A stretch of 59,449 nucleotides of DNA. Origin: an uncultured Desulfatiglans sp. GTDB taxonomy: Bacteria > Desulfobacterota > DSM-4660 > Desulfatiglandales > HGW-15. Location: contig CAZSZQ010000002.1 of assembly GCA_964610475.1 (NCBI GenBank), positions 1 through 59,449 on the forward strand, written 5' to 3'. Numbering within the stretch: the first letter of the stretch is position 1; every line of letters starts with the position of its first letter. Made by a program: the position numbers and the translations under genes. Below the pieces are notes generated by a model. It was not told where the DNA came from, searched no databases, and was given only the letters and a program-made list of their open reading frames with translations. Below, one piece after another: positions 16,409 to 47,714 of the stretch.

Positions 16409-16487
16409 AATATGATCAATGTGATTTAAATTTGGTTGAAATATTTAAATTGGTTGTTAGACTGTAAAAAATATTGATTTCTATTTA

Positions 16488-17468: not shown

Positions 17469-17552
17469 TTTCTGCTTCCGGTTTTATGCAAACCGGATCA
17501 GTACCAGTGAAGATGCAGGGCACTGATCCGGTAACCTTTATAAAGGATACAT

Positions 17553-24312: not shown

Positions 24313-26040
24313 GTGAAATGGAGGCGCAAATTGACTAGAAAGATTTTTTCTATAATGTTAACTATTTTTTTCATTGCTGCCTGTTCGACACAAGATTCTA
24401 CGGAAAAAAATCCGGGAGTTTCAATACCAGTTGCTCCGCAAAATAAAATCAGTGTGTTGAATCCGACTCCGCCCAGTAAAATGGTTGATCGCATACCGCT
24501 TACACCAAGGCTCGATACGCTTGAAGGTAAGACGATATTCCTGGTGGATATCGGTTGGGGAGGTGCCCAGGCGGCTCCCAGCATTTATGAGGAAATGAAA
24601 GCCTGGTTTGGCCAGAATATGCCGAGTGTGAAGATAGAAATCCGAAAAATAAAGGGCTTTTACATGCAGGATCAGCCGGAACTCCTTAAGGAGATATCCG
24701 AAAAGGGTAATGCCGCCATGTTCGGCATTGCAGGCTGAGACAGCTGTACATCGGCCGTGAGCCGAAATTGTCAACAACTGGAACAGCAGTACAATATCCC
24801 CACTGTCGGGGGTTCTGCAGCCAATATTATCGATTATGCCATTAATTACAACTTCAAGTATACAAACGGATCACCTATCAGGTATATAGCCTTTCCTTTC
24901 CCGGTAGCGGGTCAGCCCCAATCTGTCCATCATAAATATATCTTTGAGAGCAATGATGTGGTAAGCGGTAAACCCATGATGCAGGCATTTATAGATGCAT
25001 TGACTGCTCCTCTTACCGAGAAAGAGAAATACAAAGGGCCGGTGCCTGAGGCTGAAATCGCACAAGAACCAGGCGAACCACACCTTATCGGGCCGGACAC
25101 CGAAGAGAACCTGCAACAGCTTTTCATAGATAAAGATTGGACAGACTATCTGCCGATTGTCCTTCCGACCGAGGAAAGGGTGGCAAAGATGCTTGAAGGC
25201 ACTACCCGCAAACCCGAAGAGGTTATAAAGGTATTGGACTGGCCCGGCGGCAGACGGGAGGTTACTGTAGAAAGGGTGGCAACATGCGCTGTTATGTCAG
25301 GAGCCAGGCCGGAACATCTTCCTGTAATCCTTGCACTGGCCAACCATATACCCTTTGGAAATTCAACCTCTTCCATGGCCAACATGATCCTGGTCAACGG
25401 TCCCATACGGGATGAAATAGGTATGAATTACGGCCACAACGTTATGGGACCCCATAATCTGGCCAACTCGGTTATAGGCCGCAGTTACACGATAATGTCA
25501 AAAACCATCGGTGGACTGCACAGTAAAAAGACAACCTGGAGCACCCTTGGGAGCACCATGCAGTACAACAATGTCTGCATCGCAGAAAATGAGGAGGCGC
25601 TGCCGGAAGGTTGGAAACCTTTTCACGTGCAGGCGGGGTTTAAACCAAATGATAGTGTTTTAACCGTGGCAACCGGGTGGTCATACATCTCATGCGTAAC
25701 AGAGGCCCAGAGGGAGTATCCGGTATATATGTGGATGGGCGACCTGATGAAAGCCCTTACTATGCCAAGACCCACGGTCATTATGGATCCTTCTGTTGCA
25801 AAACTTTTGAAGGATACCTATAAATATGATACCAAAGAGCAGCTTGCTAAGTGGTTTGCAGAAAATGTTGAAAAGATAAGGCAACCCTCAGGTGAGGTGA
25901 CGAAGCCCTTCCAGGAGGCATCAATTAATATAATCGTTACCGGTGGCGGCGGCCAGACAACATGGTTTGTGACGGATTTCGGGCTGAGCCGGAATATGGT
26001 TACGCAGGGAGGAAGTACACTCATAGACGACTGGAGGTAG
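24313..26040 (+). CDS. paralog 1: UxxC (UDSC) selenoprotein N-module fused to a conserved C-module of unknown function; predicted lipoprotein; TGA 24736-24738 read as Sec
   Basis: Track ORFs 24313-24738 and 24757-26040 share a frame, separated only by a TGA and 6 sense codons. The downstream piece has no SD. Likely true start is TTG 24331, 6 nt after GGAGG, giving MTRKIFSIMLTIFFIAAC (lipobox IAAC). Homologous along its length to 32997-34754. Confidence 0.8.
24741..24780 (+). promoter_or_regulatory. SECIS-like stem-loop downstream of UGA (paralog 1)
   Basis: Apical hairpin TCGGC-CGTGA-GCCGA (24751-24765) begins 12 nt after the UGA. Outer helix CAGCTGT (24741-24747) / ACAACTG (24774-24780) pairs 6 of 7. 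Confidence 0.6.
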
Positions 26041-26056
26041 TATAAAAAATAGGGTT

Positions 26057-26100
26057 CAAGGGCTGGAGTGAAAAACAGACTGCACAGCCCTTGCCCTTTT
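26057..26100 (+). terminator. candidate terminator between convergent genes
   Basis: 9-bp stem CAAGGGCTG / CAGCCCTTG with a 19-nt loop, followed by CCCTTTT. Confidence 0.4.
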
Positions 26101-26152
26101 GAAAGATTCACTGCCCTGGTATAAAAAACCGGAGAGGGGCATTTTAATAATT

Positions 26153-27115
26153 TTAGACAGCCTCAATTGTTGAAGGCGGTTTTGTAGCGATATTATATGT
26201 AACGCTAACAATACCGGGTACCTCACTTATTATATCGGCAGCAAGTTTTTCAAGCAGATCAAATGGAAGACGTGTGGGTGAGGCAGTACGGGCATCCACA
26301 CTGTTCCAGCATCTGACCTCTATCTGTTGCCCAAAATCGCGCTGTCCGTTGCGCATGCCGGTAACCCTGTCTTCATGAAGAATTCCCATATACTGAAAGG
26401 CCCCGGAGTTTTTCAGCCACTTTTCCACAACAGCTGTTGCTTTACGAACAGTCTCTATTCTCTCTGGTGTTGCCTCTCCTATAACCCTCGCTGCCAGGGC
26501 CGGTCCCGGAAAGGGGATGCGGTCAAAGAGTGCGGAAGGCAGGCCAAGAGCCTTCCCAATGATCCTGACACCGTCTTTACGCAGTTGTATCATCGGCTCA
26601 ATAATCCCGTAGCCGAATGATTCCATAGGATCTATTCCCAGCTGCTCAAAGACATTATGCTGACGCTTAATGCCTGCAACGGTTTCATCCACGTCCGTAA
26701 GAATTGTTCCCTGAAGAAGAAATTTTGCGCCGCTTTCTTTAACAATACGGCCAAAGACCTTCCTGTAAAAGGCTTCCCTGATAGCCTCCCTCTTTTGTTC
26801 AGGATCAGTTACTCCTCTGAGTTCTGAGAAGAATTCATCTCTTGCATCAATAACATCCACTCTGACACCGAGATCCCTGAAAAAGGCAACAACCTCCCCA
26901 GGTTCTCCCTGACGCATGAGGCCATTCTCAATAAAGACCGTCTTCAGTTTACTCCCCAGTGCCCGATGACCCAGCATCGTCACTGTGGATGAATCAACAC
27001 CCCCCGACAAAGCGTTTATTGCCATGCTGTCTCCAACAATCTCTTTGATTTCCTTTATCTTTGCCTCAATGAACTTTTCGGGGTTAATTTCCTGTACTTT
27101 GATTTCCTTGATCAT
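26153..27115 (-). CDS. stand-alone GMP synthase-type ATP pyrophosphatase (GuaA C-terminal/subunit B-like PP-loop protein), no GATase domain
   Basis: PP-loop SGGVDSS; dimerisation/C-terminal motif ATKPPSTIE; 320 aa. No glutamine amidotransferase domain is encoded adjacent. Confidence 0.75.
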   Translation of the reverse strand: MIKEIKVQEINPEKFIEAKIKEIKEIVGDSMAINALSGGVDSSTVTMLGHRALGSKLKTVFIENGLMRQGEPGEVVAFFRDLGVRVDVIDARDEFFSELRGVTDPEQKREAIREAFYRKVFGRIVKESGAKFLLQGTILTDVDETVAGIKRQHNVFEQLGIDPMESFGYGIIEPMIQLRKDGVRIIGKALGLPSALFDRIPFPGPALAARVIGEATPERIETVRKATAVVEKWLKNSGAFQYMGILHEDRVTGMRNGQRDFGQQIEVRCWNSVDARTASPTRLPFDLLEKLAADIISEVPGIVSVTYNIATKPPSTIEAV

Positions 27116-27759
27116 CCTTTACCCTCCCTTTCGGTGTACAGCATATTATTTGTTTTTTATAAAAATATCGTCCTATGCCTTGTTAATCGAGTTCCATCTG
27201 CAATAATTACTTTACTTGCGTGTTTTGCTACGATAACTATTTATTATGATGATGTAAAGTTTATTACACACAAGTAATGCCTCGGGCCAGTACATTTAGA
27301 CCAGGTGACATTACCCGGTTTGATCCTAACGCTCTTAAATCAGCATGGCTGCCCTGTATCTGTATTTTAAAACAAGGATGAAATATTCATAATGCCCATA
27401 AAGGAGTACATGGAATATTTCTATTCTCTTTTGATACGATGTGTATAGCCGCAGAAAGTTTATCAATGAAAAACTGCTTGATGAATGATGGGCCTGTTTT
27501 ACCAGGTTTTATGAAAACGACTCTGTTATATTTAATGTCTCCGTGTATTTTCACCAGGATGAAGCATATTATCAATCTAAAGGGGTAAAGTTTTAATAAA
27601 TAATTATAGCCAAAAAAAGGACATCTAATTCATTAGTGTGTCTTCTCCTTTGGCAATTTGTATCTTTCAGATCCCGGTTTTACTTACTATTATTACTCAC
27701 TGATGTTTATGAATGCATCAGCTTTTCGTCAGGTTTTTATTTGACTTTCAATGATCCTC

Positions 27760-27805
27760 TATACTAATTAATAATAGTATACTTCTATACATTACTATAG
27801 GTATA
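27760..27805 (+). promoter_or_regulatory. two tandem TATAC...GTATA inverted repeats (operator candidates) upstream of the dehydratase/ADP-forming ligase operon
   Basis: TATACT-N10-AGTATA at 27760-27781 and TATAC-N10-GTATA at 27786-27805. The same arms occur in the tetR promoter at 40393-40412. Confidence 0.35.
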
Positions 27806-27842
27806 AATCTTGAATTATTAGATCCTGCCAAAGAGGTAAGTT

Positions 27843-29015
27843 ATGACTGAAAAAAAGGTGGTGATGCCTGAAACGACAATCTCTCAGGAAATGATAGAGA
27901 ATATGCGCGCTAAACTGGGCCTTAAGTTAAGAGTTGACGATAGCACTCATAATGAGTACGCCACTCGAATGGCAATCCTGAAATTCACTGAAGGCATAGG
28001 AGATCCGAATCCTTTATGGACCGATGAAGAGTATGCAAATAAAAGCCGGTTTGGCAGTATCATCGCACCTCCGTCCTTCGTATGGGCATGTTTTGCTCAT
28101 GTAATGTTCGGGTGGAGAGGGCTTGGAGGTTTTCATGCAGGATGCGATGTGGAATTCATAAAGCCGATATTCATAGGTGACAAAATATCAGCAGAGTGTA
28201 TATTTAAAAGTTTTGATGGACCTAAAGAAAGCAGCTACGCTGATGAAACCGTAATAGATCATTTTGAGAATCAATATTGGAACCAAAATGGAGATTTGAT
28301 TGCAAGGTATCATTGGTGGGTAGTTCATTTTGCCAGGGGAAAAGCGCGGAAGAAAAAGAAGTTTACAGACCTTGAATTGCCACACCCGTGGACTGAGGAC
28401 CAATTACAGCAAATCGAGCAGGAAATTCTTTCTGAGAAAATCAGGGGTTCCAAACCTCGCTATTGGGAGGATGTTGAAATTGGCGATGAGTTTGGCCCGG
28501 TAATAAAGGGACCCCTTGGTGTAACTGATGAGATAGCTTATATCATTGGTGGCGGGGTACCTATTCCGAGATTGCAGGCCCATGGTGTTGCTCTGCAATC
28601 CTATAAAAAACACCCTGCCTGGATGTTCCGTGATCCTAATACCATGGGATACGAGCCGATCTTTGCTGTTCATTATAATAAATCAGCGGCAAACGCAATG
28701 GGGCTTCCACAGCCCTATGATATAGGTATGCAGAGGCATTGCTGGGGTGTACATTTAATAACAAACTGGATGGGAGATGATGCCTGGCTAAAGAGAAGTT
28801 ATACGGAATATAAAAAGTTTGTATATTTATCGGATGTGGTCCGGTTAAAAGGTAAAGTTGTAGACAAATTTATTGATGACGAAGGGGACTATTGCGTGCG
28901 TGTCGATAGATTTACCATAAATCAAAGGAATGAAAACGTGATGCCAGGTTATGCAATTGTTGCTCTTCCCTCAAAAATTGAAAAGTCGTCTCCCCTGGAT
29001 AGAAGAATAACTTAA
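27843..29015 (+). CDS. double hot-dog MaoC-like acyl dehydratase / enoyl-CoA hydratase
   Basis: 390 aa with an N-terminal MaoC-N-like segment (FTEGIGDPNPLWTDEEYA...IAPPSF) and a second hot-dog half. RBS aagagg. Family-level call only. Confidence 0.55.
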   Translation: MTEKKVVMPETTISQEMIENMRAKLGLKLRVDDSTHNEYATRMAILKFTEGIGDPNPLWTDEEYANKSRFGSIIAPPSFVWACFAHVMFGWRGLGGFHAGCDVEFIKPIFIGDKISAECIFKSFDGPKESSYADETVIDHFENQYWNQNGDLIARYHWWVVHFARGKARKKKKFTDLELPHPWTEDQLQQIEQEILSEKIRGSKPRYWEDVEIGDEFGPVIKGPLGVTDEIAYIIGGGVPIPRLQAHGVALQSYKKHPAWMFRDPNTMGYEPIFAVHYNKSAANAMGLPQPYDIGMQRHCWGVHLITNWMGDDAWLKRSYTEYKKFVYLSDVVRLKGKVVDKFIDDEGDYCVRVDRFTINQRNENVMPGYAIVALPSKIEKSSPLDRRIT

Positions 29016-29062
29016 TATAAGGTCTTTTTAATCAGACCAAAATAAATGTGAGGGTGATATTC

Positions 29063-31276
29063 ATGTTAGAAAACAATATACTCGATAAATTTTTTCATCC
29101 AAAGTCAATAGCTGTAATAGGAGCATCTGAAAATGTATTATCATATGGATCACGCTATATTCAGGCATTGATCGATTTCGGGTACAAAGGAAAGATATAT
29201 GCGGTCAATCATAATGGGGAAAAGGTACTTGGCCATAAAATTTACAGGAATATTGCTGACGTCCCAAAACCGGTTGACCTGGTATTTATTACAATCCCTG
29301 CCCGATTCGTTGTTGATGTCATAAAGGAGTGCATTGCAGAAGGTATCAAAGCTGCTGTTATATTTACAGCTGGATTCGGTGAAACCGGGGAAGAAGGCCT
29401 GAATATTGAGAACGAGATTGTTAAAGAGGCCGAAGGCAGGATGCGAATTATAGGGCCGAATTGCTTCGGTACATATTGTCCCAGCGGCGGAATTACATTA
29501 CTTAATGGAAATAACTTTTCAAAGGAACCCGGGTCAGTGGCATTGACTGCGCAAAGCGGCCAATTGTCCGAGGTTTTAATACCTCGGGCCCAGGGAGAAG
29601 GTCTCAGACACTCTAAATTTATCAGTTATGGGAATGCAAGCGATATTAATGAGGCAGATCTTCTTGAATATTTAATGAATGATAAAGATACAAAAATAAT
29701 TACATCTTATCTGGAAGGCGTTAAGGATGGCCGCCGTTATTTTAACATAACCCGAAAGAATCCGGGGAAAAAGCCGATTATCATCTGGAAAGTCGGTCTG
29801 AGTCAAATCGGTGCCGCTGCTTCCTCTTCACATACTGGCTCTCTTGCAGGAACAAGCGCGGCATGGGATGCCTTTTTTCATCAGACGAATGCAGTTAAGG
29901 TTACCAACCTGGATGAACTTATCGACACAATAACATCTTTTTCCTGTATGCCGGACGGTTGCGGACCAAGAGTGGCCTATGTCAGTGGCGGAGGTGCAGG
30001 CACTGTTATTGGAGCTGATGCATGTGAAGCTGCGGGAATGGAGATGCCGCAATTTTCTCCCAATACAGAGAAACAACTGCGTGAACTTTTTCCAAGCATT
30101 GGCACATCCCTGAGGAATCCAATTGATATTGGAAATCCCCACCCACAGTTAGACCTTTTAAAGTCGCTTCTGGAAATTATGTCCGCAGACAAAAATGTTG
30201 ATGTAATAGTGGTAAGAGGAATATTGTTCTCTGTAAAAACGAGTCAGATATTCAGCGGCACGACCGCACCTTCTGAAAATGATCAGCGCGACTTACTTGA
30301 TATTCCGGTTAAAGTGATGAAGAAATATAAAAAACCTATAACCATTATTTTACCGGAATATGTGACAAGCGTAGAAGCTGTAGATATTGAAGAAGATAGA
30401 AGAAAAATCCGTGATTATTTCTTTACTCACGGTATTCCGGTTTATCTCTCGGAACAGAGAGCCTTTGGCGCCCTTGCCCATCTCGCCAAATACAGACAGG
30501 TCAACGGGAAAACTGTAAAAGCTGTTGTTGCCGGAAAAAATGAAAATGAGAGGGCAATAACAAATGGCAGAAAACAGTTATTAAGTATTTTAGGAGAAAC
30601 AGAAAACTCAATACTGGATGAGATACAATGTAAAACCGTATTAAAAAGCATGGGAATAAAAGTATCCGAACCGGTATTGACCGGGTCAAAAACCGAAGCT
30701 GTCTCTGTGGCAAAGAAAATGGGATACCCGGTTGTAATGAAAGTAATTTCACCGCAAATCACTCATAAAAGCGATATTGGCGGAGTTAAACTGAATCTCA
30801 TGAACGATAGTCAGGTCAGGACAGCTTATACTGAAATCATGAAAGCAGCCGCAAAAAAGGCATCAAAAGCAACAATTGATGGCGTATCCATTCAAAAAAT
30901 GGCAAAGCCGGGACTTGAGCTTGTAATAGGCATGACAAAAGATCCGCAGTTCGGACCAATGCTGATGTTTGGTTTGGGAGGGATATTTATAGAAGTATTA
31001 AAAGATGTTTCCTTCAGGATTCTACCTCTATCAAGGAAAGATGCCCTAGATATGATACGTGGGATCAGGTCATATCATCTGCTTGAAGGGTTCAGGGGCC
31101 AACCAGAAATTGATATTAAATATCTGGAAGAATTGTTGCTGAAACTTTCCGGATTTATTATGGATACTCCTGAGATAAAGGAGATGGATATTAATCCGTT
31201 GATTGCTTATGAAAAAGGAGTTATTGCCGTTGACGCAAGAATTATTCTGGAAGAGAGAGAAGTGAGTCAAAAATAA
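29063..31276 (+). CDS. ADP-forming (NDP-forming) acyl-CoA synthetase, fused alpha/beta domains
   Basis: CoA-binding start FFHPKSIAVIGAS; GPNCFG; TAQSGQL; phospho-His loop SSSHTGSLAG; C-terminal ATP-grasp. ATG 29063 follows GAGGG; the track ORF starts at GTG 29048. Confidence 0.85.
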   Translation: MLENNILDKFFHPKSIAVIGASENVLSYGSRYIQALIDFGYKGKIYAVNHNGEKVLGHKIYRNIADVPKPVDLVFITIPARFVVDVIKECIAEGIKAAVIFTAGFGETGEEGLNIENEIVKEAEGRMRIIGPNCFGTYCPSGGITLLNGNNFSKEPGSVALTAQSGQLSEVLIPRAQGEGLRHSKFISYGNASDINEADLLEYLMNDKDTKIITSYLEGVKDGRRYFNITRKNPGKKPIIIWKVGLSQIGAAASSSHTGSLAGTSAAWDAFFHQTNAVKVTNLDELIDTITSFSCMPDGCGPRVAYVSGGGAGTVIGADACEAAGMEMPQFSPNTEKQLRELFPSIGTSLRNPIDIGNPHPQLDLLKSLLEIMSADKNVDVIVVRGILFSVKTSQIFSGTTAPSENDQRDLLDIPVKVMKKYKKPITIILPEYVTSVEAVDIEEDRRKIRDYFFTHGIPVYLSEQRAFGALAHLAKYRQVNGKTVKAVVAGKNENERAITNGRKQLLSILGETENSILDEIQCKTVLKSMGIKVSEPVLTGSKTEAVSVAKKMGYPVVMKVISPQITHKSDIGGVKLNLMNDSQVRTAYTEIMKAAAKKASKATIDGVSIQKMAKPGLELVIGMTKDPQFGPMLMFGLGGIFIEVLKDVSFRILPLSRKDALDMIRGIRSYHLLEGFRGQPEIDIKYLEELLLKLSGFIMDTPEIKEMDINPLIAYEKGVIAVDARIILEEREVSQK

Positions 31277-31300
31277 TATACCCGGAAGAAATCGAGATAG

Positions 31301-32344
31301 TTACTCCTCTATCTTTTTGGTCACAACACCTGTTCGTATGGCATAGGTTGGACAGAAGAGAGTATGTTTACCTGCCCCACCAGCGACCACAACAATTAGA
31401 TCCTCAGGCTTCTGGATTACAGGGATCAGATCTTCTTCCCCATAAGAGGTAAACTGCAGCTCCTGATGCTTTTTCGAATAATTTTTTTTCGGGATTCGTG
31501 CATTCCTGTGGATGTATTCCTTTAATTGTGCCTTTGAATAGCCGCCGTTCGCTATGATACGGGCGTGTTCAGGAGCGGGAATGAGAAGCGGCTCACCGCT
31601 CTGGTAGAGAATGTTATTATTGCCCTGGGTTGCGATGGATGCAGCATAGGTCACGAGCAGATTCTCGGCATCATCAGCCGTATGATCATTGATATTGTGC
31701 GGATTTTCTACCCCATTCACAGTGACCACGCTGTCGGTCTTTTCATACCCCATCTCCACGTGGAGAGGCTCCCACGGATTTTCTTCCTCGTTTTCTGCGA
31801 TGCAGAAAGAGTACTTGCTTGGTTGTCCATGAGTGGAAAGATCGAAGGTTCCCGGGAGACCTCCTCCTATATTAAGAAGTATGAGGCGCACAGCCCTTCC
31901 AATAGTGGCGTTAGCCCGGTTCGCCGGGCCAAATAGATTACATCCACAGTTCATACCTATGCTATGCCGGATAGGACCGTTTACAATAACAATTGGCGCT
32001 ACGGGATGGGTTGTTGCCTGAATGTTATGTAGCCCGAGAGAGGGTTCCGCCAGGGCCTGTACTGCCGCCACAAGAACAGGCATATATTCGGGGAGACATC
32101 CTGCCATTACAGCATTGATAGCTACAAGACTCACTGTGGCATCGTTCCCGGAGGGGGGTAGAATGCCGAGAACTTCTTCGGGATTCTTTTTGGTCCCCTT
32201 GAGCATTCTGGTCACTCGCTCCTCCGTAGGAGGGATTACAGGTAACCCGTCAGTCCATCCACGCTCGTGATAGATGTTATAGATCTCTTCCGGGTTATCG
32301 GGAACTTCCAGCATATTTATATTAAATTTTCCGCTATCTGTCAT
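31301..32344 (-). CDS. paralog 3, C-module as a stand-alone protein (conserved domain of unknown function)
   Basis: Aligns with the C-terminal roughly 350 aa of 24313-26040 and 32997-34754. Shared motifs: GWTDGLPVIPPTEERV, INAVMAGCLPEYMPVL, NGPIR, ANATIGRA, CIAENEEE. RBS AGGAGA. Confidence 0.75.
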   Translation of the reverse strand: MTDSGKFNINMLEVPDNPEEIYNIYHERGWTDGLPVIPPTEERVTRMLKGTKKNPEEVLGILPPSGNDATVSLVAINAVMAGCLPEYMPVLVAAVQALAEPSLGLHNIQATTHPVAPIVIVNGPIRHSIGMNCGCNLFGPANRANATIGRAVRLILLNIGGGLPGTFDLSTHGQPSKYSFCIAENEEENPWEPLHVEMGYEKTDSVVTVNGVENPHNINDHTADDAENLLVTYAASIATQGNNNILYQSGEPLLIPAPEHARIIANGGYSKAQLKEYIHRNARIPKKNYSKKHQELQFTSYGEEDLIPVIQKPEDLIVVVAGGAGKHTLFCPTYAIRTGVVTKKIEE

Positions 32345-32382
32345 TATTATCTCCTGAGCAGATCTATCTTTTTTTGACTTAA

Positions 32383-32952
32383 TTATCGGGCCCCCTGAGC
32401 ATTAGCATTTCCAACATTTCCAACAAGAGTGCAGATAATTTCTTTAATGGCGCCATCTGCCTTTTTAATGATCTCCGTGTCATTATTGAGGGCGATGGGG
32501 TGGGTTACGACGACGAGTGGCATGTCGGTTAACCTTTTTGCCTTGGCTGTAGTCCTCAGAAGGGCCGAAAAGCTTGTGGTGCAGACTGTTGTGGTAGGAA
32601 GGTTTCTCTTTTCGAGTTCAATGGAACTCTGGATACACCAGAGCGAACATCCCCCTCAATCTCCGGTGCCGATGACTGCACCATCACAGGTAGTAACGAT
32701 ATGATCAACAACTTCCGGCTCAATTACTTTTTTGGTGTCTCCTCTGTCACTTATCCATTCAATTCCTGACACTCCATATTGATCAGTGAGCAGTTCAGAG
32801 ACTCTTTTAAGAAAAATGTCACCTCCCAGTTTCCCGTTCCAGATTACAGCAAGCCGTTTCCCCTGGAGTGAGGTGAGACGCATGGCTGCCGCCACAGACT
32901 TTTTGACTCTCTTTACTCCAGTGGGAATATACACCATTATCTTTTCACCCAT
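32383..32952 (-). CDS. paralog 3, N-module: 189-aa UxxC (UGGC) selenoprotein; TGA 32656-32658 read as Sec
   Basis: Track ORF stops at TGA after ...AVIGTGD. The frame stays open for 90 more codons (GGCSLWCIQSSIELEKRNLP...) to TAA 32383-32385, and that extension is homologous to the post-Sec region of paralog 2. Otherwise 270 nt would be unexplained. RBS AGGAGG before ATG 32952. Confidence 0.75.
32627..32643 (-). promoter_or_regulatory. SECIS-like hairpin downstream of UGA (paralog 3)
   Basis: mRNA CUCUGG-UGUAU-CCAGAG, a perfect 6-bp stem starting 12 nt after the UGA. Confidence 0.6.
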
Positions 32953-32996
32953 GAATTTTCCTCCTGCTGTCTAAAACCATTTGCAACGGTTTTCTA

Positions 32997-34754
32997 TCAT
33001 CTCATTTTTACCACCTTTAATTTCTCAGTCCAGTCCACCGGAAGCTCAATACGCTTACTTGTAGTATAACCCAGACACCCGTTGCTGATAAATATATGAG
33101 CATTTGTTCTCCAGGGATCTCCGCTGACAGTGATTACGAAATCATCAGGCGAGCATACAATCGGCACCAGTCGATCAGGATCTTCAGACTCACAGAACTG
33201 TGGTCCAAGTACCCCTTCCTCTACATAATCGCAGAGTGAGACATGGTCAGGAGCAAAATTTGTCCATCCCCAGTTTAACTTTTCAACTTTCCATGCGGGT
33301 ATTCTAGCGTGATCATAAAGGTACTGTTTTACATCTTTTTTCGACCAGCCGCCTTTTGCGATTGTTTCGGCCAGCACGGGAGTAAGTATGAGATGAGGTC
33401 TTTGACTGCAGCCGATTGCAGGTCTGGGAAGGACCGTAAACCATATCTCCCATCCCATATAGCCGGTAAAACGGTCGGCGATATAGGTAAGTATTTCTTC
33501 CGGCTTCTGTCCGTATGCCCCGGTAATTACTCCTCCGCTGACATGTCTTGCTACGGTTACAACATTTTCACCTGCCTTAAAGCCCTGGTCAACACTCAGG
33601 GGATGCCATCCTATGCGTGCAATTGTGTCTTCATTCTCGGCCAGGACCACTTTCCATGTACCGCCAAAGGTCGCCATATCAGTTTGATGAAGATGAAATC
33701 CGGCTACATTCCTTAACATGAGTCTCCAGAAACGACCTATTGTTGTGTTCGCCTGAAATCCGTCACGCAATGCCCCCTGTTCGTAATTGAAGTCAAGCTC
33801 TTTAATTATGGGACCATTGAGGGTGATCAGCGTTTCCGAGCCGGGAGTATTGCCGCTGTGCTCAACACCATATTGCGGATCTGCCATTGCCTCCGTAAGA
33901 GCAATAAGCACCGGCATATATTCCGGTCTGCATCCGGCCATTACTCCGTTTACAGCGGTATTCCATATGGTTGCCTGTCGGCTGTCAGGAAGTAAAACCC
34001 CGATCACTTCCTTGGGTGCCCTGTCCGTAAAGGACATGAACCGTTCAACATTTTCCAGTGTCGGAGGAATAATCGGCAAAGAATCGTTCCACCCTCTGGA
34101 TAAAAAGAATCTGTTTACCTCTTCATATGAACCCTCAAAAACGATGCTTTCAAAAGTTGGCTCAGGTCTCTCTTTCTTGAGCAAAGGTACCTGCCCGGTC
34201 AACCCCTCAATAACTAAAGGTAATGTAGTGGTTTCGATGTTTGTCTTCAATTCTTCCGGGGTCTGTGTGTCAACATGACCGGGTATCATGGCAATAGCCA
34301 TATTGGGAAATCCGACGCCGCTCGCGACTGCCTGAGCACCCCTAACAAAGGATTCACAGATTAGAGGCACAACCGGAACACCGGCTTTTTCTACCACTGC
34401 ACTCGCCCGCATCACGGCAGACGTACAGCTTCCTCAGCATCCCACTGCTGATATTACTGCATCACAACCATATTTCTCCAGCCTGGCCGGTAACTCAGCC
34501 AGTACCTTTGCTTCATCTTTGTCATGAATATTTCCGAAATTATCATAGCTGACGAATTTGAGCTCTGAAAATTCCTTTGATAACCGGTCCTGAATTATCT
34601 TAAAAATACTGTCACCACGGAATACATAGTCCCATAACAGACCGACTGTCTTTCCGTTGAGTGTATCGAGGCGTTTTGAGATGCTTGTCGCTTTTATTGT
34701 TTTTTTCCCTTTGGGCCAGACCACCTTGTAGATACCTTTATTGGCCGCTTCCAT
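32997..34754 (-). CDS. paralog 2: UGSC selenoprotein N-module fused to the conserved C-module (585 aa); TGA 34434-34436 read as Sec
   Basis: Track ORFs 34434-34754 and 32997-34415 share a frame (339 nt offset), separated by a TGA and 6 sense codons. Junction reads AVISAVGC-U-GSCTSAVMRAS. No SD precedes the downstream piece. RBS GGGAGG before ATG 34754. Confidence 0.8.
34404..34423 (-). promoter_or_regulatory. SECIS-like hairpin downstream of UGA (paralog 2)
   Basis: mRNA CGUCUGC-CGUGAU-GCGGGCG, 7 bp including two G:U pairs, starting 10 nt after the UGA. Loop CGUGA(U) matches the paralog 1 loop CGUGA. Confidence 0.55.
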
Positions 34755-34877
34755 TCGAATCGCCTCCCGTATTTCTTATTTCATGTGATTCATGAGATGC
34801 TTTTGCTGCTTTTTTCTATGACGTTTATAACCTCAATCTTTAAGTGCATCTTAATCCGGAGAAGACTGTTTTAATTA

Positions 34878-35816
34878 TTAATTTGAATTTTTGTTTAAAG
34901 TCTGTAGGAATCTTTGCGCCGCCACTGCGGCGATAGCCCCGTCGCCCACTGCTGCAGATATCTGCTGGGGAGAATACTGCCGCAGGTCACCAGCCGCAAA
35001 TATACCCGGAACAGTTGTCTCCATATTTTGATTTATTTCAATTCGGCCTGAGGCATCGAGGGGCACAATACCATCGAAATAGGCCGTATTAGGCACAATC
35101 CCGATATGAACTAGGACTCCCTCTACCTGGAGAGTCTCTTTTTGGGATGTGCCGATATCTTCCAGTACAATACCTTTTACATTATTTTCGCCTGTAATCT
35201 CAATAACCTTTTGCCCGCGGCGAATCTCGATTTTTGGGTCGAAAGCTGCTCTTTCCTGATAGATTGGTGTGGCGGTCAGATTAGGCAGGGCTTCTATAAT
35301 TATTACTTTTGATGCAAGTTTGGACATATAAAGCGCCTCGGTTATACCTGCGTCTCCTCCTCCGCATACGGCCAGCACGCGGTTTTCGAACTGTCCCCCT
35401 TCACAGAGCGCACAATGTATCACGCCCCGCCCGTAAAATTTATCTTCGCCCGGAACATTCAGTTTTCTTGATGATGATCCACAGGCTATGATTATGGCCA
35501 TTGAAGTGTAATTTGTTCCATTTTTACATTTTACATTGAAGCAACTGGAATATGAAGCAATGTCCGTCACTTCACCCTGTTCCAGTTCTACATCATATTT
35601 CATGGCCTGACCTATCATCTCGGTGGCGAGTGCTGTCCCTTCTATTCCTTCGGAAAAACCGGGATAATTTTCAACCCAGGCGATATTCAGCAACTGCCCG
35701 CCAAACTGATCTTTTTCCACTAATAAAACCCGGTATTTGGCCCTGGCCAGATAAATACCGGCGGTTATTCCGGATGGCCCTGCTCCAATAATAATTACAT
35801 CGTAATCTGTTACCAC
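34878..35816 (-). CDS. thioredoxin-disulfide reductase-like FAD/NAD(P)H flavoprotein
   Basis: GAGPSG FAD motif; GGQL...ENYPGF; redox-active CALCEG (canonical TrxB has CATCDG); second dinucleotide motif GGGDAG; GDLR near the C-terminus; 312 aa. Confidence 0.85.
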   Translation of the reverse strand: MVTDYDVIIIGAGPSGITAGIYLARAKYRVLLVEKDQFGGQLLNIAWVENYPGFSEGIEGTALATEMIGQAMKYDVELEQGEVTDIASYSSCFNVKCKNGTNYTSMAIIIACGSSSRKLNVPGEDKFYGRGVIHCALCEGGQFENRVLAVCGGGDAGITEALYMSKLASKVIIIEALPNLTATPIYQERAAFDPKIEIRRGQKVIEITGENNVKGIVLEDIGTSQKETLQVEGVLVHIGIVPNTAYFDGIVPLDASGRIEINQNMETTVPGIFAAGDLRQYSPQQISAAVGDGAIAAVAAQRFLQTLNKNSN

Positions 35817-35878
35817 AGCTATAAACTCGTACTAGAATTTTAGTATTGTCCCGTTTTACTTTAATTTAGTAATTTCTT

Positions 35879-37438
35879 TTACTCTTTTTTATCAATAAGT
35901 TCTTTGCAATTTTTCTTTAGTATTGCTTTATCGATTTTTCCCACTGCATTTTTAGGTAACTCGTCTAAAAAATCTATGGACCGGGGTTTTTTATACCCGG
36001 CCAACCGGGAGGCGCAAAACTCCATCAGTTCTTTTTCGCCTATTTTATCTCTAAATTCCGTCTCCAGTGCGATAACCGCCTTTACTGATTCTCCCCATTC
36101 CCTGTCCGGTATGCCTATAACAGCAGCTTCATAGACTGCGGGGTGCTGGTATAACACCTCTTCAACCTCTCTGGTTGAAACATTTTCTCCCCCGCTGATT
36201 ATTATGTCTTTTTTCCTATCAACAATAAAGATATAACCGTCCTGGTCCCTGTAGCCTATATCACCCGTATAAAGCCAGCCATCTTTAAAGGTTTCTGCCG
36301 ATTCCTTGGGCAACTTCCAATAGGACCGGGCGATGTTATCGCCCTTACCCGTAATTTCGCCAATCTGCCCATCAGGGACTTCCTTTCCTTCCATATCAAC
36401 AATAGCAATTTCAACGCCCATGGCATCTTTTCCTACTGAACCGAGTTTTTCTGCCATAGTACCTTCAAGGGAGTGTTCACTACTGCGGAAATGAAGGAGG
36501 GCGCCATTAGCTTCAGTAGCACCCAGACCTGTTGTAAGCCGGTGAGATCCAAGAATTTTCATAGCTGCTTTAAGCTGTTCTTTGGGAATCGGAGCCCCTG
36601 CGTACATGATGAGTCTAATGCTTTCAAGATTATAGGATGATATATTGGGATCAGAGATAATTCTCCCGAGTACTGTTGGGACCAGGTTGATAAATGTAAT
36701 TTTTCTATTTTGTATAATTTTATACATCGGATCCAGATCGAATCTGGGCATCAGGACAGTCGTACCTCCCCGGTAAACCATACTCAACATGGGCCATAAC
36801 CCGCCAAGGTGGAAGAGCGGCATTGCAAGAAGACTGATATCTTCAGGAACAAGATCCAGTTCAAGGCACATCGTGTTGGTATTTGCCATTATGTTCCGAT
36901 GTGTTGATATAACGCCCCTTGGAAAGCCCGTGGCTCCGCTTGTGAACATAATCATGGCCATATCATCGGGCTCTACTGTTACAAGGGGTTCAGAATCTGA
37001 AGCACTTGAGATAAGATCTTCATAGGAGAGCACATTATCTCCGTAATTTCCCGTTGATATGTAATGGTTGATCCCGGCAATGTTCTTCCGTATTTTTTGA
37101 ACAGTTGCTTCCATTTCTTTGTCATAGATAAGAAGAGTCACTTCAGCATTTCTGAGAACATAGGATGCTTCATCACCGGAGAAGCGTGCATTTACCGGAA
37201 CGGCGATTGAACCGATCTTTGCAATGGCAAAATAGAATTCTATGAAATGGTGGGAGTTGTATCCCATAAAGGCTATCTTATCACCCTTGGTTATTCCTAT
37301 CCCCAGAAGGGCATTTGCCAGCCTGTTAACTCTTTGATTAATTTCTCGATAATTATACTCTTTTTCTCCGTCAATAACCGCTACCTTCCGGTTGCGAATC
37401 CTCGCTTCTCTAAGTATTATGTCACCGATCAGCATCAT
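35879..37438 (-). CDS. AMP-forming acyl-CoA ligase (adenylate-forming superfamily)
   Basis: AMP-binding motif FTSGATGFPRG; YGATE-like GLGATE; TGDIGYRDQDGY; C-terminal LPKNAVGKIDK. Confidence 0.85.
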   Translation of the reverse strand: MMLIGDIILREARIRNRKVAVIDGEKEYNYREINQRVNRLANALLGIGITKGDKIAFMGYNSHHFIEFYFAIAKIGSIAVPVNARFSGDEASYVLRNAEVTLLIYDKEMEATVQKIRKNIAGINHYISTGNYGDNVLSYEDLISSASDSEPLVTVEPDDMAMIMFTSGATGFPRGVISTHRNIMANTNTMCLELDLVPEDISLLAMPLFHLGGLWPMLSMVYRGGTTVLMPRFDLDPMYKIIQNRKITFINLVPTVLGRIISDPNISSYNLESIRLIMYAGAPIPKEQLKAAMKILGSHRLTTGLGATEANGALLHFRSSEHSLEGTMAEKLGSVGKDAMGVEIAIVDMEGKEVPDGQIGEITGKGDNIARSYWKLPKESAETFKDGWLYTGDIGYRDQDGYIFIVDRKKDIIISGGENVSTREVEEVLYQHPAVYEAAVIGIPDREWGESVKAVIALETEFRDKIGEKELMEFCASRLAGYKKPRSIDFLDELPKNAVGKIDKAILKKNCKELIDKKE

Positions 37439-37487
37439 TTTCTATTTCCAGTTTTTTTGACTGTTGATATATAATTCCAGTCCTGTT

Positions 37488-39053
37488 TTATTGACTTAAA
37501 GCCTTTAATTCCTTTTCCCGTTCCTTGAGGAGTTTTCTCTTGATTTTCCCATCCGGTGTTTTTGGCAGATCTGCTATGAAATCGATTTCCCGCGGATACT
37601 CGTGTTTGCTCAGTCTGGTTTTCACAAAAGCCTTGATTTCTTCTTCAAGATCTTCAGATTCTGTATAGCCTTTTTTGAGTACGATGATGGCCTTGACAAC
37701 TTCACCCCTGTTTTTATCAGGACTCCCGACGACGGCGCATTCTTCAACAGCAGGATGTTTGTTAATAGCTCCTTCTACCTCAATAGGGCCAATGGTATAG
37801 CCGGCTGAGATAATAACATCATCAATTCTTCCCACATACCATAAATATCCGTCTTCATCGATATAAGCGCTATCACCTATCTTGAACCATGCATTATTTC
37901 TCCAGAGGGCAACCTGACCGGTCGTTCCGGGAGGAACTTCTTTTTCGTTTTCATCAAGGATGGCTATTTTGATACCACCTAACATTAATTTACCTAAACT
38001 TCCCGGTTTAATAACCCAATTGTCAAAGGCCATGAAATCAAGGGCAATAGGACCTGCCTCAGTGGTACCATACTGAGCCGCAGGATAAATGCCCCATTCA
38101 CGGTGAAGGGCAGCAACTGTATCCTTTGTCATGGCTTCGCCCGTATAATTGATTGTCCTGAGCCTGACTTTGTATTTATCAACATTTGGAGATTCCATAA
38201 TGAGGCGGTAATGAGAGGAAATGGCTGCCATAATTGTAACTCCCCATTCCTCCAGGGCTTCAAGTACCATGTCCGTATCGAACTTGCCGGAAAAAGTACC
38301 AAGTGCCCTCCCATGGATAAGAGGAGCTATGGTGCCATACCATATACCGTGTCCCCAGCCGGGTGATGAAGGACAGAAATAAATGTCATCAGGTCTAAGT
38401 CCATTTCCGAGTTTCATGACCACTCCTGCGACTGAGATAGCACCATGTTTGTAAAGGATGGATTTTGGCTCTCCGGTAGTGCCGCTCGAAAATTGCATCA
38501 TGCAGACGGTGTTTACATCTGTTTTCCATTCATAGCTGTCGGAACACTTCGATAACTCTTCCATAAGGTCATCTGCATAAATAATCCTGAGGCCAAGTTT
38601 CTCGGCAAGCTCCTTATCAATATTTTTTGTCATGGCCTTTGTTGTTATAATTGCCTTTGCATTTGATCTTAAAAGTCTGAAATTTATTGCTTCCGGCCCA
38701 AAAAGAGGAAAACACATTACAGCTACTGCCCCTCTTCTGAATGTACCGAACATGCTTATGTAAAGCTCAATGGAGGGGAAGAGCAATATAACAACCTTAT
38801 CTCCTGATTTTATTTCTTTTTCTTGAAGGTAGTTGGCAAAGCGTCGAGTATACTCTGAGAACTGCCCGAATGTATACATTTCCGATCTTCCATCGGAAAA
38901 TTTTATGCGTATCGCAGTTTCATCCTTGGGATGTCGATCAATACATTCATGGGCAATGTTAAAATGCTCTTTTGTGCCGTCAAAAAGGGACCATCTTTCT
39001 TTCCAGTTGAACTTTTCTTTAGCGTCATCGTAGCTGATATAGTCAAGACTCAT
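37488..39053 (-). CDS. AMP-forming acyl-CoA synthetase (medium-chain/acetyl-CoA-synthetase-like)
   Basis: FSSGTTGEPK; QYGTTE; GDSAYIDEDGY; LPKTPDGKIKR. Confidence 0.85.
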   Translation of the reverse strand: MSLDYISYDDAKEKFNWKERWSLFDGTKEHFNIAHECIDRHPKDETAIRIKFSDGRSEMYTFGQFSEYTRRFANYLQEKEIKSGDKVVILLFPSIELYISMFGTFRRGAVAVMCFPLFGPEAINFRLLRSNAKAIITTKAMTKNIDKELAEKLGLRIIYADDLMEELSKCSDSYEWKTDVNTVCMMQFSSGTTGEPKSILYKHGAISVAGVVMKLGNGLRPDDIYFCPSSPGWGHGIWYGTIAPLIHGRALGTFSGKFDTDMVLEALEEWGVTIMAAISSHYRLIMESPNVDKYKVRLRTINYTGEAMTKDTVAALHREWGIYPAAQYGTTEAGPIALDFMAFDNWVIKPGSLGKLMLGGIKIAILDENEKEVPPGTTGQVALWRNNAWFKIGDSAYIDEDGYLWYVGRIDDVIISAGYTIGPIEVEGAINKHPAVEECAVVGSPDKNRGEVVKAIIVLKKGYTESEDLEEEIKAFVKTRLSKHEYPREIDFIADLPKTPDGKIKRKLLKEREKELKALSQ

Positions 39054-39165
39054 TCTTTCCCTTTTATGTTCACATTTAAAAAACTATTTACTTTCACAGG
39101 AGTTTTTATTCTGAGTGAGAATAATGTTTATAGGTATACAAAAGGCCTACTAGTGTCAATATTTT

Positions 39166-39365
39166 ATTTTTGAATATTTACATGGAGCTGATTGATCTGA
39201 GGCTGACAGCACTCTGACAAGATCAAAGGCCTGATCTTTGATAGGGTCAACTGCAGCAAGGATAAGAGGCATATACTGGTATAGACAACCGGCTATTACA
39301 GCGTTAAAATAATTGGCTGGATCTGTAGGTTTTTTATGTCCTTTTTTCCGTTCTTCTATTAAGTC
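39166..39365 (-). pseudogene. decayed fragment of a fourth copy of the conserved C-module
   Basis: Minus-strand translation reads LIEERKKGHKKPTDPANYFNAVIAGCLYQYMPLILAAVDPIKD. It matches PTEERV...KKNPEEV...INAVMAGCLPEYMPVLVAAV of 31301-32344. It has an internal deletion, no start codon, and stops on both sides. Confidence 0.5.
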
Positions 39366-41215: not shown

Positions 41216-41716
41216 ATGAAGCATCTTATCCGATTAAAGGTGAATGGTGACACCTATACTGTCGCGTGTGAGTCATCCCGCACTCTTAATGAGGTCCTTA
41301 GAGAAGACCTTGGTTTGACAGGCACCAAGCTGGGATGCAGTGACGGGGACTGCGGGGCCTGCACTGTTATGATTGATGGGAATTCTGTCAGTTCATGCCT
41401 GACACTGGCTGCATCCTGTGAAGGAAAGGAAATAACCACAGTAGAAGGGCTGGCAAGATCAGGGGAGGAGCTGCATCCCATACAGGAAGCCTTTATAGAA
41501 AAAGGGGCAATTCAGTGCGGTTTCTGTACAGCCGGGATGGAGATGTCGGCCTTGAATCTGTTGAGTAAAAACAGTTCACCCACAGAAGAGGAAATCCGGA
41601 CAGCAATATCCGGAAACCTTTGCCGGTGCACAGGTTACTATAAAATAGTTGAGGCAATAGACAGTGCTGCTGAAAAAATTAGAAAGAAACAAAAAAAAAT
41701 TAAGAAGAGGATATAA
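41216..41716 (+). CDS. molybdenum hydroxylase small subunit, two [2Fe-2S] clusters (CoxS/XdhC-type)
   Basis: GCSDGDCGACTV; QCGFCTAGM; CRCTGY. Confidence 0.9.
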   Translation: MKHLIRLKVNGDTYTVACESSRTLNEVLREDLGLTGTKLGCSDGDCGACTVMIDGNSVSSCLTLAASCEGKEITTVEGLARSGEELHPIQEAFIEKGAIQCGFCTAGMEMSALNLLSKNSSPTEEEIRTAISGNLCRCTGYYKIVEAIDSAAEKIRKKQKKIKKRI

Positions 41717-41719
41717 AAA

Positions 41720-42592
41720 ATGGGTCTTTCCAGATTTGATTACTATGCTCCTGAAACAATAAAAGAGGCATGTAAACTGGCCTCTGAAATGGGTAAAGGC
41801 GCAATGTTTATGGCCGGTGGCACCGATCTTTTAATAAAAATCAAAAGAAAGCTGCTCAAAGCCACGGCTGTTATTGATATAAAAAAAATAAAAGGGCTGG
41901 ACGAAATATCCTTTGACAGGAGAAAAGGGCTCACGATCGGCTCTGCAGTAACTCTAACAGCAATCGAAAACCATACTCTGATAAAGGAAAAATATCCTGC
42001 CATAGCTGATGCAGCACATGCTACAGCCAATGTCCAGATTAGAAACATGGCGTCAATTTCAGGGAACCTTTGCAATGCCGCTCCATCGGCGGAAAACGCC
42101 CCGGTTCTAATGGCTATGAGTGCGCATGTAATGCTTGCTTCTCAGGACGGAACAAGGTCATTGCCGCTGGATGGATTTTTTAAGGGCCCTGGTAAAACAG
42201 TTATAAAACAGGGTGAGATCCTTACATCGATTACCGTGCCTGTGCCTCCCAATGGCTCAGGAACTTCATACCAGCATATATCCGCCAGGAGCAAGGTGGA
42301 TATCTCCGCGGTCAATGTCGGCGCCATGCTTATCATGTATGGCGATATCTGCGAGGATGCAAGGATATTCCTGGGCGCTGTTGCCCCCACTCCCATGATG
42401 GCAAAAAACGCACAAAAGGTCCTGAAGGGCAAAAAATTAACCGAGGAACTCCTTCAGACAGCAGGTTTAGAGGCGTCCAAAGAATGCAGTCCCATTACAG
42501 ATATGCGTGCAACTGCTGAATATAGAAGACTCATGGTTGCAGTTTTAACTGGTAGAGCAATTGATGAATCAAGAAGCAGGGCTGCAAGGTAA
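41720..42592 (+). CDS. molybdenum hydroxylase FAD-binding medium subunit (CoxM-type)
   Basis: FAD_binding_5 motif MAGGTDLL; C-terminal CO-dehydrogenase flavoprotein domain (TDMRATAEYR). Confidence 0.85.
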   Translation: MGLSRFDYYAPETIKEACKLASEMGKGAMFMAGGTDLLIKIKRKLLKATAVIDIKKIKGLDEISFDRRKGLTIGSAVTLTAIENHTLIKEKYPAIADAAHATANVQIRNMASISGNLCNAAPSAENAPVLMAMSAHVMLASQDGTRSLPLDGFFKGPGKTVIKQGEILTSITVPVPPNGSGTSYQHISARSKVDISAVNVGAMLIMYGDICEDARIFLGAVAPTPMMAKNAQKVLKGKKLTEELLQTAGLEASKECSPITDMRATAEYRRLMVAVLTGRAIDESRSRAAR

Positions 42593-42627
42593 ATCATGCT
42601 CTGGATTAATGAAGGGAAAGGAAAACA

Positions 42628-44898: not shown

Positions 44899-44909
44899 GA
44901 GGATAATTA

Positions 44910-46367: not shown

Positions 46368-46378
46368 GGAGGAAAGGG

Positions 46379-47713: not shown

Positions 47714-47714
47714 T

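Follow-up and report, generated by a model that had tools for sequence, protein, structure and literature searches.

Predicted UGSC-family selenoproteins and their widespread orphan partner domain in an uncultured Desulfatiglans sp.

Three genes of the UGSC family, each interrupted by a single in-frame TGA that is probably read as selenocysteine (Sec, U), lie on contig CAZSZQ010000002.1 of an uncultured Desulfatiglans sp. (assembly GCA_964610475.1). We analysed positions 1 to 59,449 of this contig, a stretch of 59,449 nucleotides that we refer to as the window. In every unit, the UGSC domain (N-module) is either fused to or followed by a second domain of about 350 aa, which we call the C-module. 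The units and an additional C-module remnant are located as follows.

24313-26040, plus strand: P1, a fusion of a UGSC domain (about 24454-24915) and a C-module (about 25087-26037), recognised by translation and Pfam; predicted Sec codon at 24736-24738
32997-34754, minus strand: P2, a fusion of a UGSC domain and a C-module, 585 codons; predicted Sec codon at 34434-34436, motif C-U-G-S-C
32383-32952, minus strand: N3, a stand-alone gene for a predicted UGSC selenoprotein, 189 codons; predicted Sec codon at 32656-32658, motif D-U-G-G-C
31301-32344, minus strand: C3, a stand-alone C-module of 347 aa, 38 nt downstream of N3
39183-39308, minus strand: decayed fourth C-module, of which 42 aa are left (FNAVIAGCLYQYMPLILAAV...); these align with C3 residues 76-117 at 38% identity (E 4e-5)

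Translation of P1, P2 and N3 gave exactly one in-frame TGA per unit, in the contexts FGIAG(TGA)DSCTSAV, SAVGC(TGA)GSCTSAV and IGTGD(TGA)GGCSLWC, respectively. These TGAs fall into the same alignment column of three paralogous domains. When the N-modules were scanned with U written as C, all three matched the Pfam family PF24696 (UGSC family, gathering score 25 bits), with 39.9 bits for P1, 115.5 for P2 and 134 for N3. The match crosses the TGA in each case (P1 residues 48–201, E 6e-10; P2 residues 11–175, E 4e-33; N3 residues 7–177, E 8e-39), and homology therefore runs on beyond the stop. An initial annotation of this DNA had reported both the shared column and the continuing homology, and the label it tentatively gave to the N-module, 'UGSC family (seleno)protein', turned out to be the right one. 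The NCBIfam model of this name, NF041046, is the best match for all three N-modules, but their scores (29.7, 69.9 and 111.4 bits) remain below its equivalog cutoff of 125 bits. Judged by these scores, P1, P2 and N3 are best placed in divergent or fused subfamilies outside the narrow NF041046 equivalog.

The conserved column opens a U/C-x-x-C motif, which reads UGSC in P2, UGGC in N3 and UDSC in P1. Among 26 aligned members of the family, this column (column 99) is invariably U or C, and the resolving Cys of the UxxC motif is kept in at least 90% of the sequences. We scanned the whole window for other TGAs flanked by long open reading frames (ORFs) in the same frame and found these three to be the sole plausible read-through cases. 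Because there are only three of them, a reassigned genetic code, which we rejected, and random sequencing errors are both unlikely explanations.

Each TGA is followed, after 11–12 nt, by a hairpin of 5–7 bp that resembles a Sec insertion sequence (SECIS), close to the distance of 10–12 nt given in the initial annotation.

24751-24765, plus strand: SECIS-like hairpin of P1, 5-bp stem UCGGC/GCCGA with loop CGUGA, beginning 12 nt past the UGA
34396-34429, minus strand: SECIS-like hairpin of P2, core stem at 34405-34422 with 6 bp including two G-U pairs, loop CGUGAU, and a lower helix that extends the core
32626-32644, minus strand: SECIS-like hairpin of N3, GCUCUGG/CCAGAGU with loop UGUAU

Taken singly, these hairpins only modestly beat shuffled sequences (z -0.9 to -1.5). 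We therefore turn to the family as a whole, for which 80 genomic loci were fetched by means of the C-module and 83 UGSC ORFs were extracted from them. The shared column holds a TGA in 77 of these ORFs, which come from unrelated genomes of many phyla. The remaining six have Cys except for one with Ser; the Cys forms include those of Natrialba asiatica, a Sphingomonas bin and a Binatia bin. Hyphomonas neptunium and Robertmurraya sp. 2P01SA are cultured organisms with Sec forms, and N. asiatica is one with a Cys form. Full-length homologs of the P2 type likewise display Cys at the U column (GACGSCTPAV). The 30 nt past the UGA hold a conserved helix with the consensus UCGUGG-AGUAU-CCACGA, which at the same time encodes S-W-S-I-H-D.

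Covariation of this helix was tested on 46 distinct UGSC sites, the N3 site among them, with 500 shuffles and a slid 3' arm as controls. The 7-bp helix was paired in 89.8% of the cells, as opposed to 25–50% when the 3' arm was slid. Changes on both sides were seen at all seven helix pairs, and 24 double-change cells were observed compared with 6.1 in the shuffles, none of which reached the observed number. Part of the compensation falls on synonymous positions, for example UGG...GUC to UGC...GUG. The N3 helix (CUCUGG/CCAGAG) lies in the family-consensus register and is retained through three compensatory pairs, the P2 hairpin has the same register as those of other P2-type genes, and in P1 a stem of 5 bp places the loop at the matching distance. 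Decoding of the three TGAs as Sec, as proposed in the initial annotation, is thus well supported by SECIS covariation and by the Cys orthologs.

One could argue instead that the TGAs are true stops, created by pseudogene formation, gene splitting or assembly errors, and that no selenoprotein is produced. Public gene calls do break these genes at the TGA, and the window contains neither selA, selB and selD nor a gene for tRNA-Sec; Rfam and tRNA scans of the window gave no matches. True stops would nevertheless have to share their column in 77 of 83 orthologs across many phyla, be followed at constant spacing by a covarying hairpin, be succeeded by coding homology and occur only three times in 59 kb. 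NCBI, Pfam and the literature also curate the family as selenoproteins. We regard true stops as extremely improbable.

The three complete C-modules of the window share 31–36% pairwise identity, in line with the domain of about 350 aa and common motifs that the initial annotation had described. Their common invariants are D32, LP, P39, AxxxVMxG, T112, NGP, N145-IGR, T171-x-G and ENE, and the Cys of the AVMAGC motif is kept in at least 90% of the sequences. In C3 numbering, N122-G123-P124, R150, E184-N185-E186 and K271 also belong to the invariant residues. A fourth, decayed copy had been placed at 39166-39365; it is real, but tiny, being confined to the 42 aa encoded at 39308-39183. At least 8,000 homologs of C3 are present in a collection clustered at 90% identity. 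Of the best 120 listed, those with a name all go by 'hypothetical protein', and Pfam domains are missing throughout. A C-module profile run against 1.84 billion representatives recovered 7,554 clusters (50% identity) at E <= 1e-3 and 5,082 at E <= 1e-10. The cluster lengths form four classes: about 345–370 aa for the C-module alone, about 410–460 aa for fusions that gene callers cut at the TGA, about 530–570 aa for full fusions and about 710–740 aa for double modules. Members of the last class (P0262, P0265, P0270, P0306, P0320 and P0328) have two C-modules in tandem.

Searches for a known relative of the C-module were negative. Permissive Pfam and NCBIfam scans (E <= 1) of 14 C-modules gave no recurrent match, so that the HMM searches assigned it to no family in either database. 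A profile search of all PDB chain sequences returned nothing meaningful (best E 0.56). A structural model of C3 (pLDDT 80.6) had only weak, generic Foldseek matches in the PDB, such as Toblerone-fold hydrolases (E 7e-3, TM 0.2), which we do not take as homology. The C-module is a widespread orphan domain of about 350 aa, without a relative in Pfam, NCBIfam or the PDB.

The two modules are tightly coupled. UGSC adjoins the C-module, mostly directly upstream of it, in 72 of the 80 loci selected through the C-module, and about one third of the pairs are fusions. For the reverse test, 120 metagenome loci were chosen by the UGSC DNA motif alone, and 58 of them extended at least 1.5 kb downstream. 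A C-module was found near UGSC in 57 of these 58 loci (54 on the same strand within 2.5 kb, three adjacent in other arrangements; one had none). The linkage noticed in the initial annotation is therefore kept across genomes, and pairing is close to obligate in both directions. Since the coupling holds whichever module is used to select the loci, both parts constitute a single functional unit.

We modelled the structure of P0129, a fused Cys homolog that is 54% identical to P2, with AlphaFold. The model is compact and confident (pLDDT 85, pTM 0.87). In its N-domain, strand–helix units appear to alternate, with U-x-x-C predicted at the end of a beta-strand. Foldseek matches in the PDB were weak and exclusively Rossmann/flavodoxin-like (FtsZ N-domain, MetH B12 domain, SGNH, SIS); the FtsZ match reached E 4e-4 at TM 0.3, and we do not take any of them as homology. 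According to the model, the UGSC domain of about 180 aa has a Rossmann/flavodoxin-like alpha/beta fold. The thioredoxin fold suggested for UGSC in 2008 is not supported, given the strand–helix repeats and the lack of thioredoxins among the Foldseek matches. At the sequence level, a UGSC profile found nothing meaningful among all PDB chains (best E 0.25).

NCBIfam was more informative when 26 UGSC sequences were scanned singly against it. TIGR01917 (GrdB, the selenoprotein B of glycine reductase) was matched by 15 of the 26, with a best E of 1e-5. Further matches were to TIGR01918 (seven sequences), GrdH (six), GrdF (six) and PrdB (three), and unrelated families were each matched by at most two. 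P2 itself matches GrdH and TIGR01918. Where coordinates were returned, the matched positions were about 310–407 of the 431 in the selenoprotein B profile, which is the Sec-bearing region; the Sec of GrdB presumably lies near residue 350. Pfam scans of the same 26 sequences did not recover the GRDB family, which only NCBIfam did. UGSC resembles selenoprotein B weakly but specifically, as a remote homolog and not as a member.

On the minus strand, the units are accompanied by genes for a flavoprotein and for acyl-CoA metabolism, and a convergent unit encodes two more enzymes.

34878-35816, minus strand: low-molecular-weight thioredoxin-reductase-like (TrxR-like) flavoprotein with the redox motif CALC, matching TIGR01292
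35879-39053, minus strand: two AMP-forming acyl-CoA ligases (35879-37438 and 37488-39053), first genes of the operon, kept in loci L081, L083 and L084
27843-31276, plus strand: convergent unit of a MaoC/FAS1-type double hot-dog (de)hydratase (27843-29015) and an ADP-forming acyl-CoA synthetase (ACD, 29048-31276)

The gene order and the identities of these neighbours agree with the initial annotation. The TrxR-like protein matches TIGR01292 (TrxB) over its full length (positions 1–300 of 300) with 318.9 bits, just under the cutoff of 343.45. It shares with TrxB the FAD and pyridine-nucleotide domains and, at the canonical position, the C-A-L-C motif. It differs in its score below the cutoff, in the lack of a recognisable HRRxxxR motif for NADPH specificity, in the lack of a thioredoxin gene nearby and in the company of its orthologs. 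These orthologs (48–75% identical) are immediate neighbours of UGSC in Desulfobacterota, Chloroflexota and in bins with the labels Acidobacteriota and Betaproteobacteria; the association of such a gene with the UGSC pair, already noted in the initial annotation, thus recurs in several phyla. This constant company suggests that the TrxR-like protein has UGSC, and not thioredoxin, as its substrate.

A reductase next to a UxxC protein could also mean that UGSC is a mere thioredoxin-like electron carrier. The C-module would then be the enzyme, acting through its AVMAGC Cys or a cofactor, and Sec would never meet the substrate. UxxC is a motif typical of redox carriers, the TrxR-like gene stands directly beside UGSC in a cluster without a thioredoxin gene, the AVMAGC Cys is as widely kept as stated above, and the tight 1:1 pairing and the fusions would suit a dedicated donor. 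Three points argue against a carrier: P1 keeps U yet lacks the AVMAGC Cys, the modelled fold is Rossmann/flavodoxin-like and not that of thioredoxin, and the sequence likeness is to the catalytic selenoprotein B, not to the carriers GrdA or Trx. On balance, a carrier role appears rather unlikely.

In close relatives of the window (loci L081, L083 and L084, 70–88% identity), the same set is found in shuffled order: TrxR-like gene, P2-type fusion, N3, C3, two AMP-forming ligases and MaoC. It is accompanied there by TRAP transporter genes, MmgE/PrpD and a DUF6282 gene. The more distant locus L085 has a UGSC–DUF6282–C-module arrangement beside a LarA-like gene, an ADP-forming synthetase, MaoC, TRAP and TctC. 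MaoC and ACD recur in L081, L083, L085 and L012. A cassette of TrxR-like gene, UGSC, DUF6282 and C-module occurs in bins of Dehalococcoidales (L001), Chloroflexota (L086), 'Acidobacteriota' (L012) and Desulfobacterota (L083). Overall, the ligases, MaoC, ACD and the TrxR-like gene are found in 4–9 of 87 loci and in 0–2 of 120 short metagenome loci. The initial annotation had linked the system to the neighbouring acyl-CoA enzymes, but they are conserved in close relatives only, and we rejected the CoA ligases, MaoC and ACD as core parts. The core is the UGSC/C-module pair, with the TrxR-like and DUF6282 genes as recurrent accessories and the CoA enzymes as lineage-specific context, which points to organic-acid catabolism.

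Around the pair, the commonest families among 150 immediate-neighbour ORFs of 55 loci were TctC (12), SBP_bac_5 (6), luciferase-like monooxygenases (5), MmgE/PrpD (4), acyl-CoA dehydrogenases (4) and CoA-transferase III (3). These neighbours are enriched for carboxylate uptake and acyl-CoA metabolism, including TRAP DctPQM transporters. In L012, a MaoC gene at 16401-17570 encodes a protein 84% identical to that of the window, and the contig also carries the TrxR–UGSC–DUF6282–C-module cassette and a P2-type fusion. L012 may have received these genes by a transfer not long ago, or its contig may have been mis-binned and belong to a relative of the organism studied here.

The DUF6282 gene encodes an amidohydrolase-like protein with an FHVHAAPD motif and lies between the UGSC and C-module genes (L083:9105-9965, L085:7102-7986, L086:7101-7949, L001:1058-1909 and L012:5827-6675). 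The window itself contains no DUF6282 gene, and a literature search for DUF6282 or a characterised partner brought up nothing relevant.

Some UGSC proteins are probably exported. The start codon of P1 is more likely the TTG at 24331, which follows a GGAGG ribosome-binding site. As read from the sequence, the N-terminus (24313-24390) looks like a canonical lipoprotein signal peptide, MTRKIFSIMLTIFFIAA/C, with the lipobox IAA/C. A Sec-containing fused homolog in L085 (763-1419) also has a lipoprotein signal (FLTA/C). P1 and its L085 homolog would thus be exported, lipid-anchored selenoproteins, which is unusual.

The exported versions fit a non-redox enzyme, in which Sec or Cys would serve as a covalent nucleophile and no external reductant would be needed. 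Such an enzyme might be an isomerase or racemase, a hydrolase or an acyl/selenoester transferase, with an organic acid, cyclic amide or CoA ester as its substrate. In its favour, the majority of loci have no dedicated reductase, G-D-U-G-S resembles a small-x-nucleophile-x-small elbow, and the amidohydrolase-like DUF6282 gene often stands between UGSC and the C-module. The weak Foldseek matches also include SGNH esterases/acyltransferases for the fused model and Toblerone-fold cyclic amide hydrolases for the C-module. These structural matches are, however, poor (TM 0.2–0.43, E >= 2.6e-3). A lone nucleophile would not require the resolving Cys that is kept in at least 90% of the sequences, the pair has a specific TrxR-like gene at its side in several phyla, and the sole recurring sequence likeness is to selenoprotein B, a reductase component. 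We consider a non-redox enzyme improbable, even more so than a carrier.

Our preferred reading is that the pair forms a two-part UxxC reductase for small carboxylic acids, similar to selenoprotein B but with a non-pyruvoyl partner; we estimate its probability at about 0.45. The C-module would bind a small carboxylic-acid-type substrate or its CoA ester, and the UGSC selenolate would attack an electrophilic centre of the bound substrate. As in the selenoprotein B chemistry of glycine and D-proline reductases, the Cys three residues past Sec might then resolve the adduct, leaving a selenenylsulfide. This bond could be re-reduced by the TrxR-like flavoprotein of the operon through its CALC motif, or, in genomes without this flavoprotein, by a general thiol system. 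Processing of the substrate or the product may, in this lineage, fall to the pair of CoA ligases together with the MaoC (de)hydratase and the ADP-forming synthetase. Every chemical step and the substrate class are inferred. The reading is supported by the Sec signals, the exchange of Sec and Cys, the UxxC motif, the pairing and fusion of the modules, the likeness to selenoprotein B and the recurrent TrxR-like gene, as well as by the compact model of the fused homolog and the carboxylate and acyl-CoA genes among the neighbours.

Several observations weigh against such a reductase. The AVMAGC Cys, the best-conserved Cys of the C-module, is missing from P1, and no signature of a cofactor or active site can be recognised in the C-module. 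The TrxR-like gene is present in just 9 of the 87 loci and in none of the 120 short metagenome loci. The matches to selenoprotein B score 13–19 bits where shown, compared with cutoffs of 65–775 (TIGR01917, TIGR01918, TIGR04483). Pfam and NCBIfam scans of the cluster genes and the 150 neighbour ORFs detected no pyruvoyl partner (PrdA/GrdE), no GrdA and no GrdC/D. Predicted lipoprotein forms such as P1 and the L085 homolog would operate outside the cytoplasm and hence apart from its NAD(P)H and CoA pools. Finally, in some fused paralogs U and the resolving Cys are replaced by Ser/Thr (AISGGSTTR and GLTGTSSAR in L081, GMSGGSTTR in L012), and the domain pair can therefore exist without redox chemistry. 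These paralogs are encoded as follows.

L081:557-2281: fused UGSC and C-module paralog with U and Cys replaced
L081:14476-16197: fused UGSC and C-module paralog with U and Cys replaced
L012:10127-11845: fused UGSC and C-module paralog with U and Cys replaced

The initial annotation had drawn an analogy to the glycine and D-proline reductases. It holds insofar as 15 of the 26 UGSC sequences match selenoprotein B models, and fails with regard to the absent PrdA/GrdE, GrdA and GrdC/D. With the systems of selenoprotein B (GrdB, GrdF, GrdH, PrdB), the UGSC units share the weak but recurrent likeness in the Sec region, U-x-x-C, a thioredoxin-reductase-type gene in the operon and ties to activated acyl metabolism; a second, substrate-binding polypeptide would be common to both if the C-module has this role. 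They differ in their scores below the cutoffs and in having a C-module instead of a pyruvoyl proprotein (PrdA/GrdE), without GrdA or GrdC/D. UGSC is also not restricted to amino-acid-fermenting anaerobes, being common in aerobic bacteria of soil, freshwater and groundwater and in haloarchaea.

The UGSC family itself is not new. The initial annotation had presented a candidate uncharacterised system, but UGSC-containing proteins have been listed as selenoproteins without assigned function since 2005–2008 (PMC1976440, PMC2398784, PMC9312934, PMC13188914), and a 2026 review still gives their function as unknown (PMC13188914). A 'UGSC/Unknown_1' fusion was recorded in 2008 (PMC2398784), and Unknown_1 may be the C-module. 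UGSC is among the most abundant predicted selenoproteins of aquatic metagenomes. In the GOS data, 255 Sec forms stand against 21 Cys forms, and UGSC is the top family in non-marine samples (PMC2398784).

By sequence, P1, P2 and N3 are to be counted as further members of this catalogued family (PF24696, NF041046; the 'UGSC-containing protein' of Zhang and Gladyshev). They pass the Pfam threshold and have U-x-x-C, a SECIS hairpin and Cys orthologs, and fused homologs of the P2 type already bear the NCBI name 'UGSC family (seleno)protein'. They depart from it in their scores below the NF041046 cutoff, in the variants UGGC (N3) and UDSC (P1), in the presence of three paralogs plus a remnant, one of them a predicted exported lipoprotein, in a partner C-module without a family model of its own and in a fold predicted to be Rossmann/flavodoxin-like, not thioredoxin-like as proposed in 2008. 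In the literature searched, we did not find the two-way coupling to an orphan domain, the family-wide SECIS covariation, the Rossmann-like fold or the likeness to selenoprotein B, nor the TrxR-like/DUF6282 cassette and the predicted exported and apparently redox-dead UGSC forms.

The near-obligate two-part unit, the remote kinship with selenoprotein B and the accessories present in some lineages (TrxR-like, DUF6282 and CoA-activating enzymes) make the question of UGSC function experimentally approachable. If the reductase is borne out, it would represent new selenoenzyme chemistry outside the classical fermenters and provide a function for about 7,500 protein clusters. A broader proposal, which we regard as possible though doubtful, is that UGSC and the C-module form an unrecognised, widespread class of selenoenzymes. 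Relative to the Stickland-type selenoprotein B reductases, this class would form a distant sister group in which the pyruvoyl partner has been swapped for a fold without a solved relative. It would act on imported carboxylic acids in aerobic and anaerobic heterotrophs, with periplasmic lipoprotein versions and redox-dead paralogs. If this is true, the locus described here, with its three paralogs, TrxR-like protein, two CoA ligases, MaoC and ADP-forming synthetase, would amount to an almost complete pathway and a place to look for the substrate.

We also observed features of the window beyond the UGSC units. A gene at 26153-27115 (minus strand) encodes a stand-alone PP-loop protein of 320 aa with a match to the synthetase half of GMP synthase, its C-terminal part, and a weaker one to the sulfur transferase LarE. 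In L085, the LarA-like gene directly follows the C-module. At 19361-21685 (minus strand), a single ORF of 774 aa fuses a PLP-dependent, cysteine-synthase-like domain (PALP) to the catalytic domain of a class I cysteinyl-tRNA synthetase and a DALR domain. A cluster for a molybdoenzyme of the xanthine-dehydrogenase/4-hydroxybenzoyl-CoA-reductase type, with 2Fe-2S, FAD and MoCo subunits, occupies 41216-49319 on the plus strand. It is preceded by a TetR regulator and followed by two FAD_binding_4 (GlcD-like) proteins and one CCG/4Fe-4S (GlpC-like) protein. A comparable set of molybdoenzyme genes lies near the UGSC cluster of L081.

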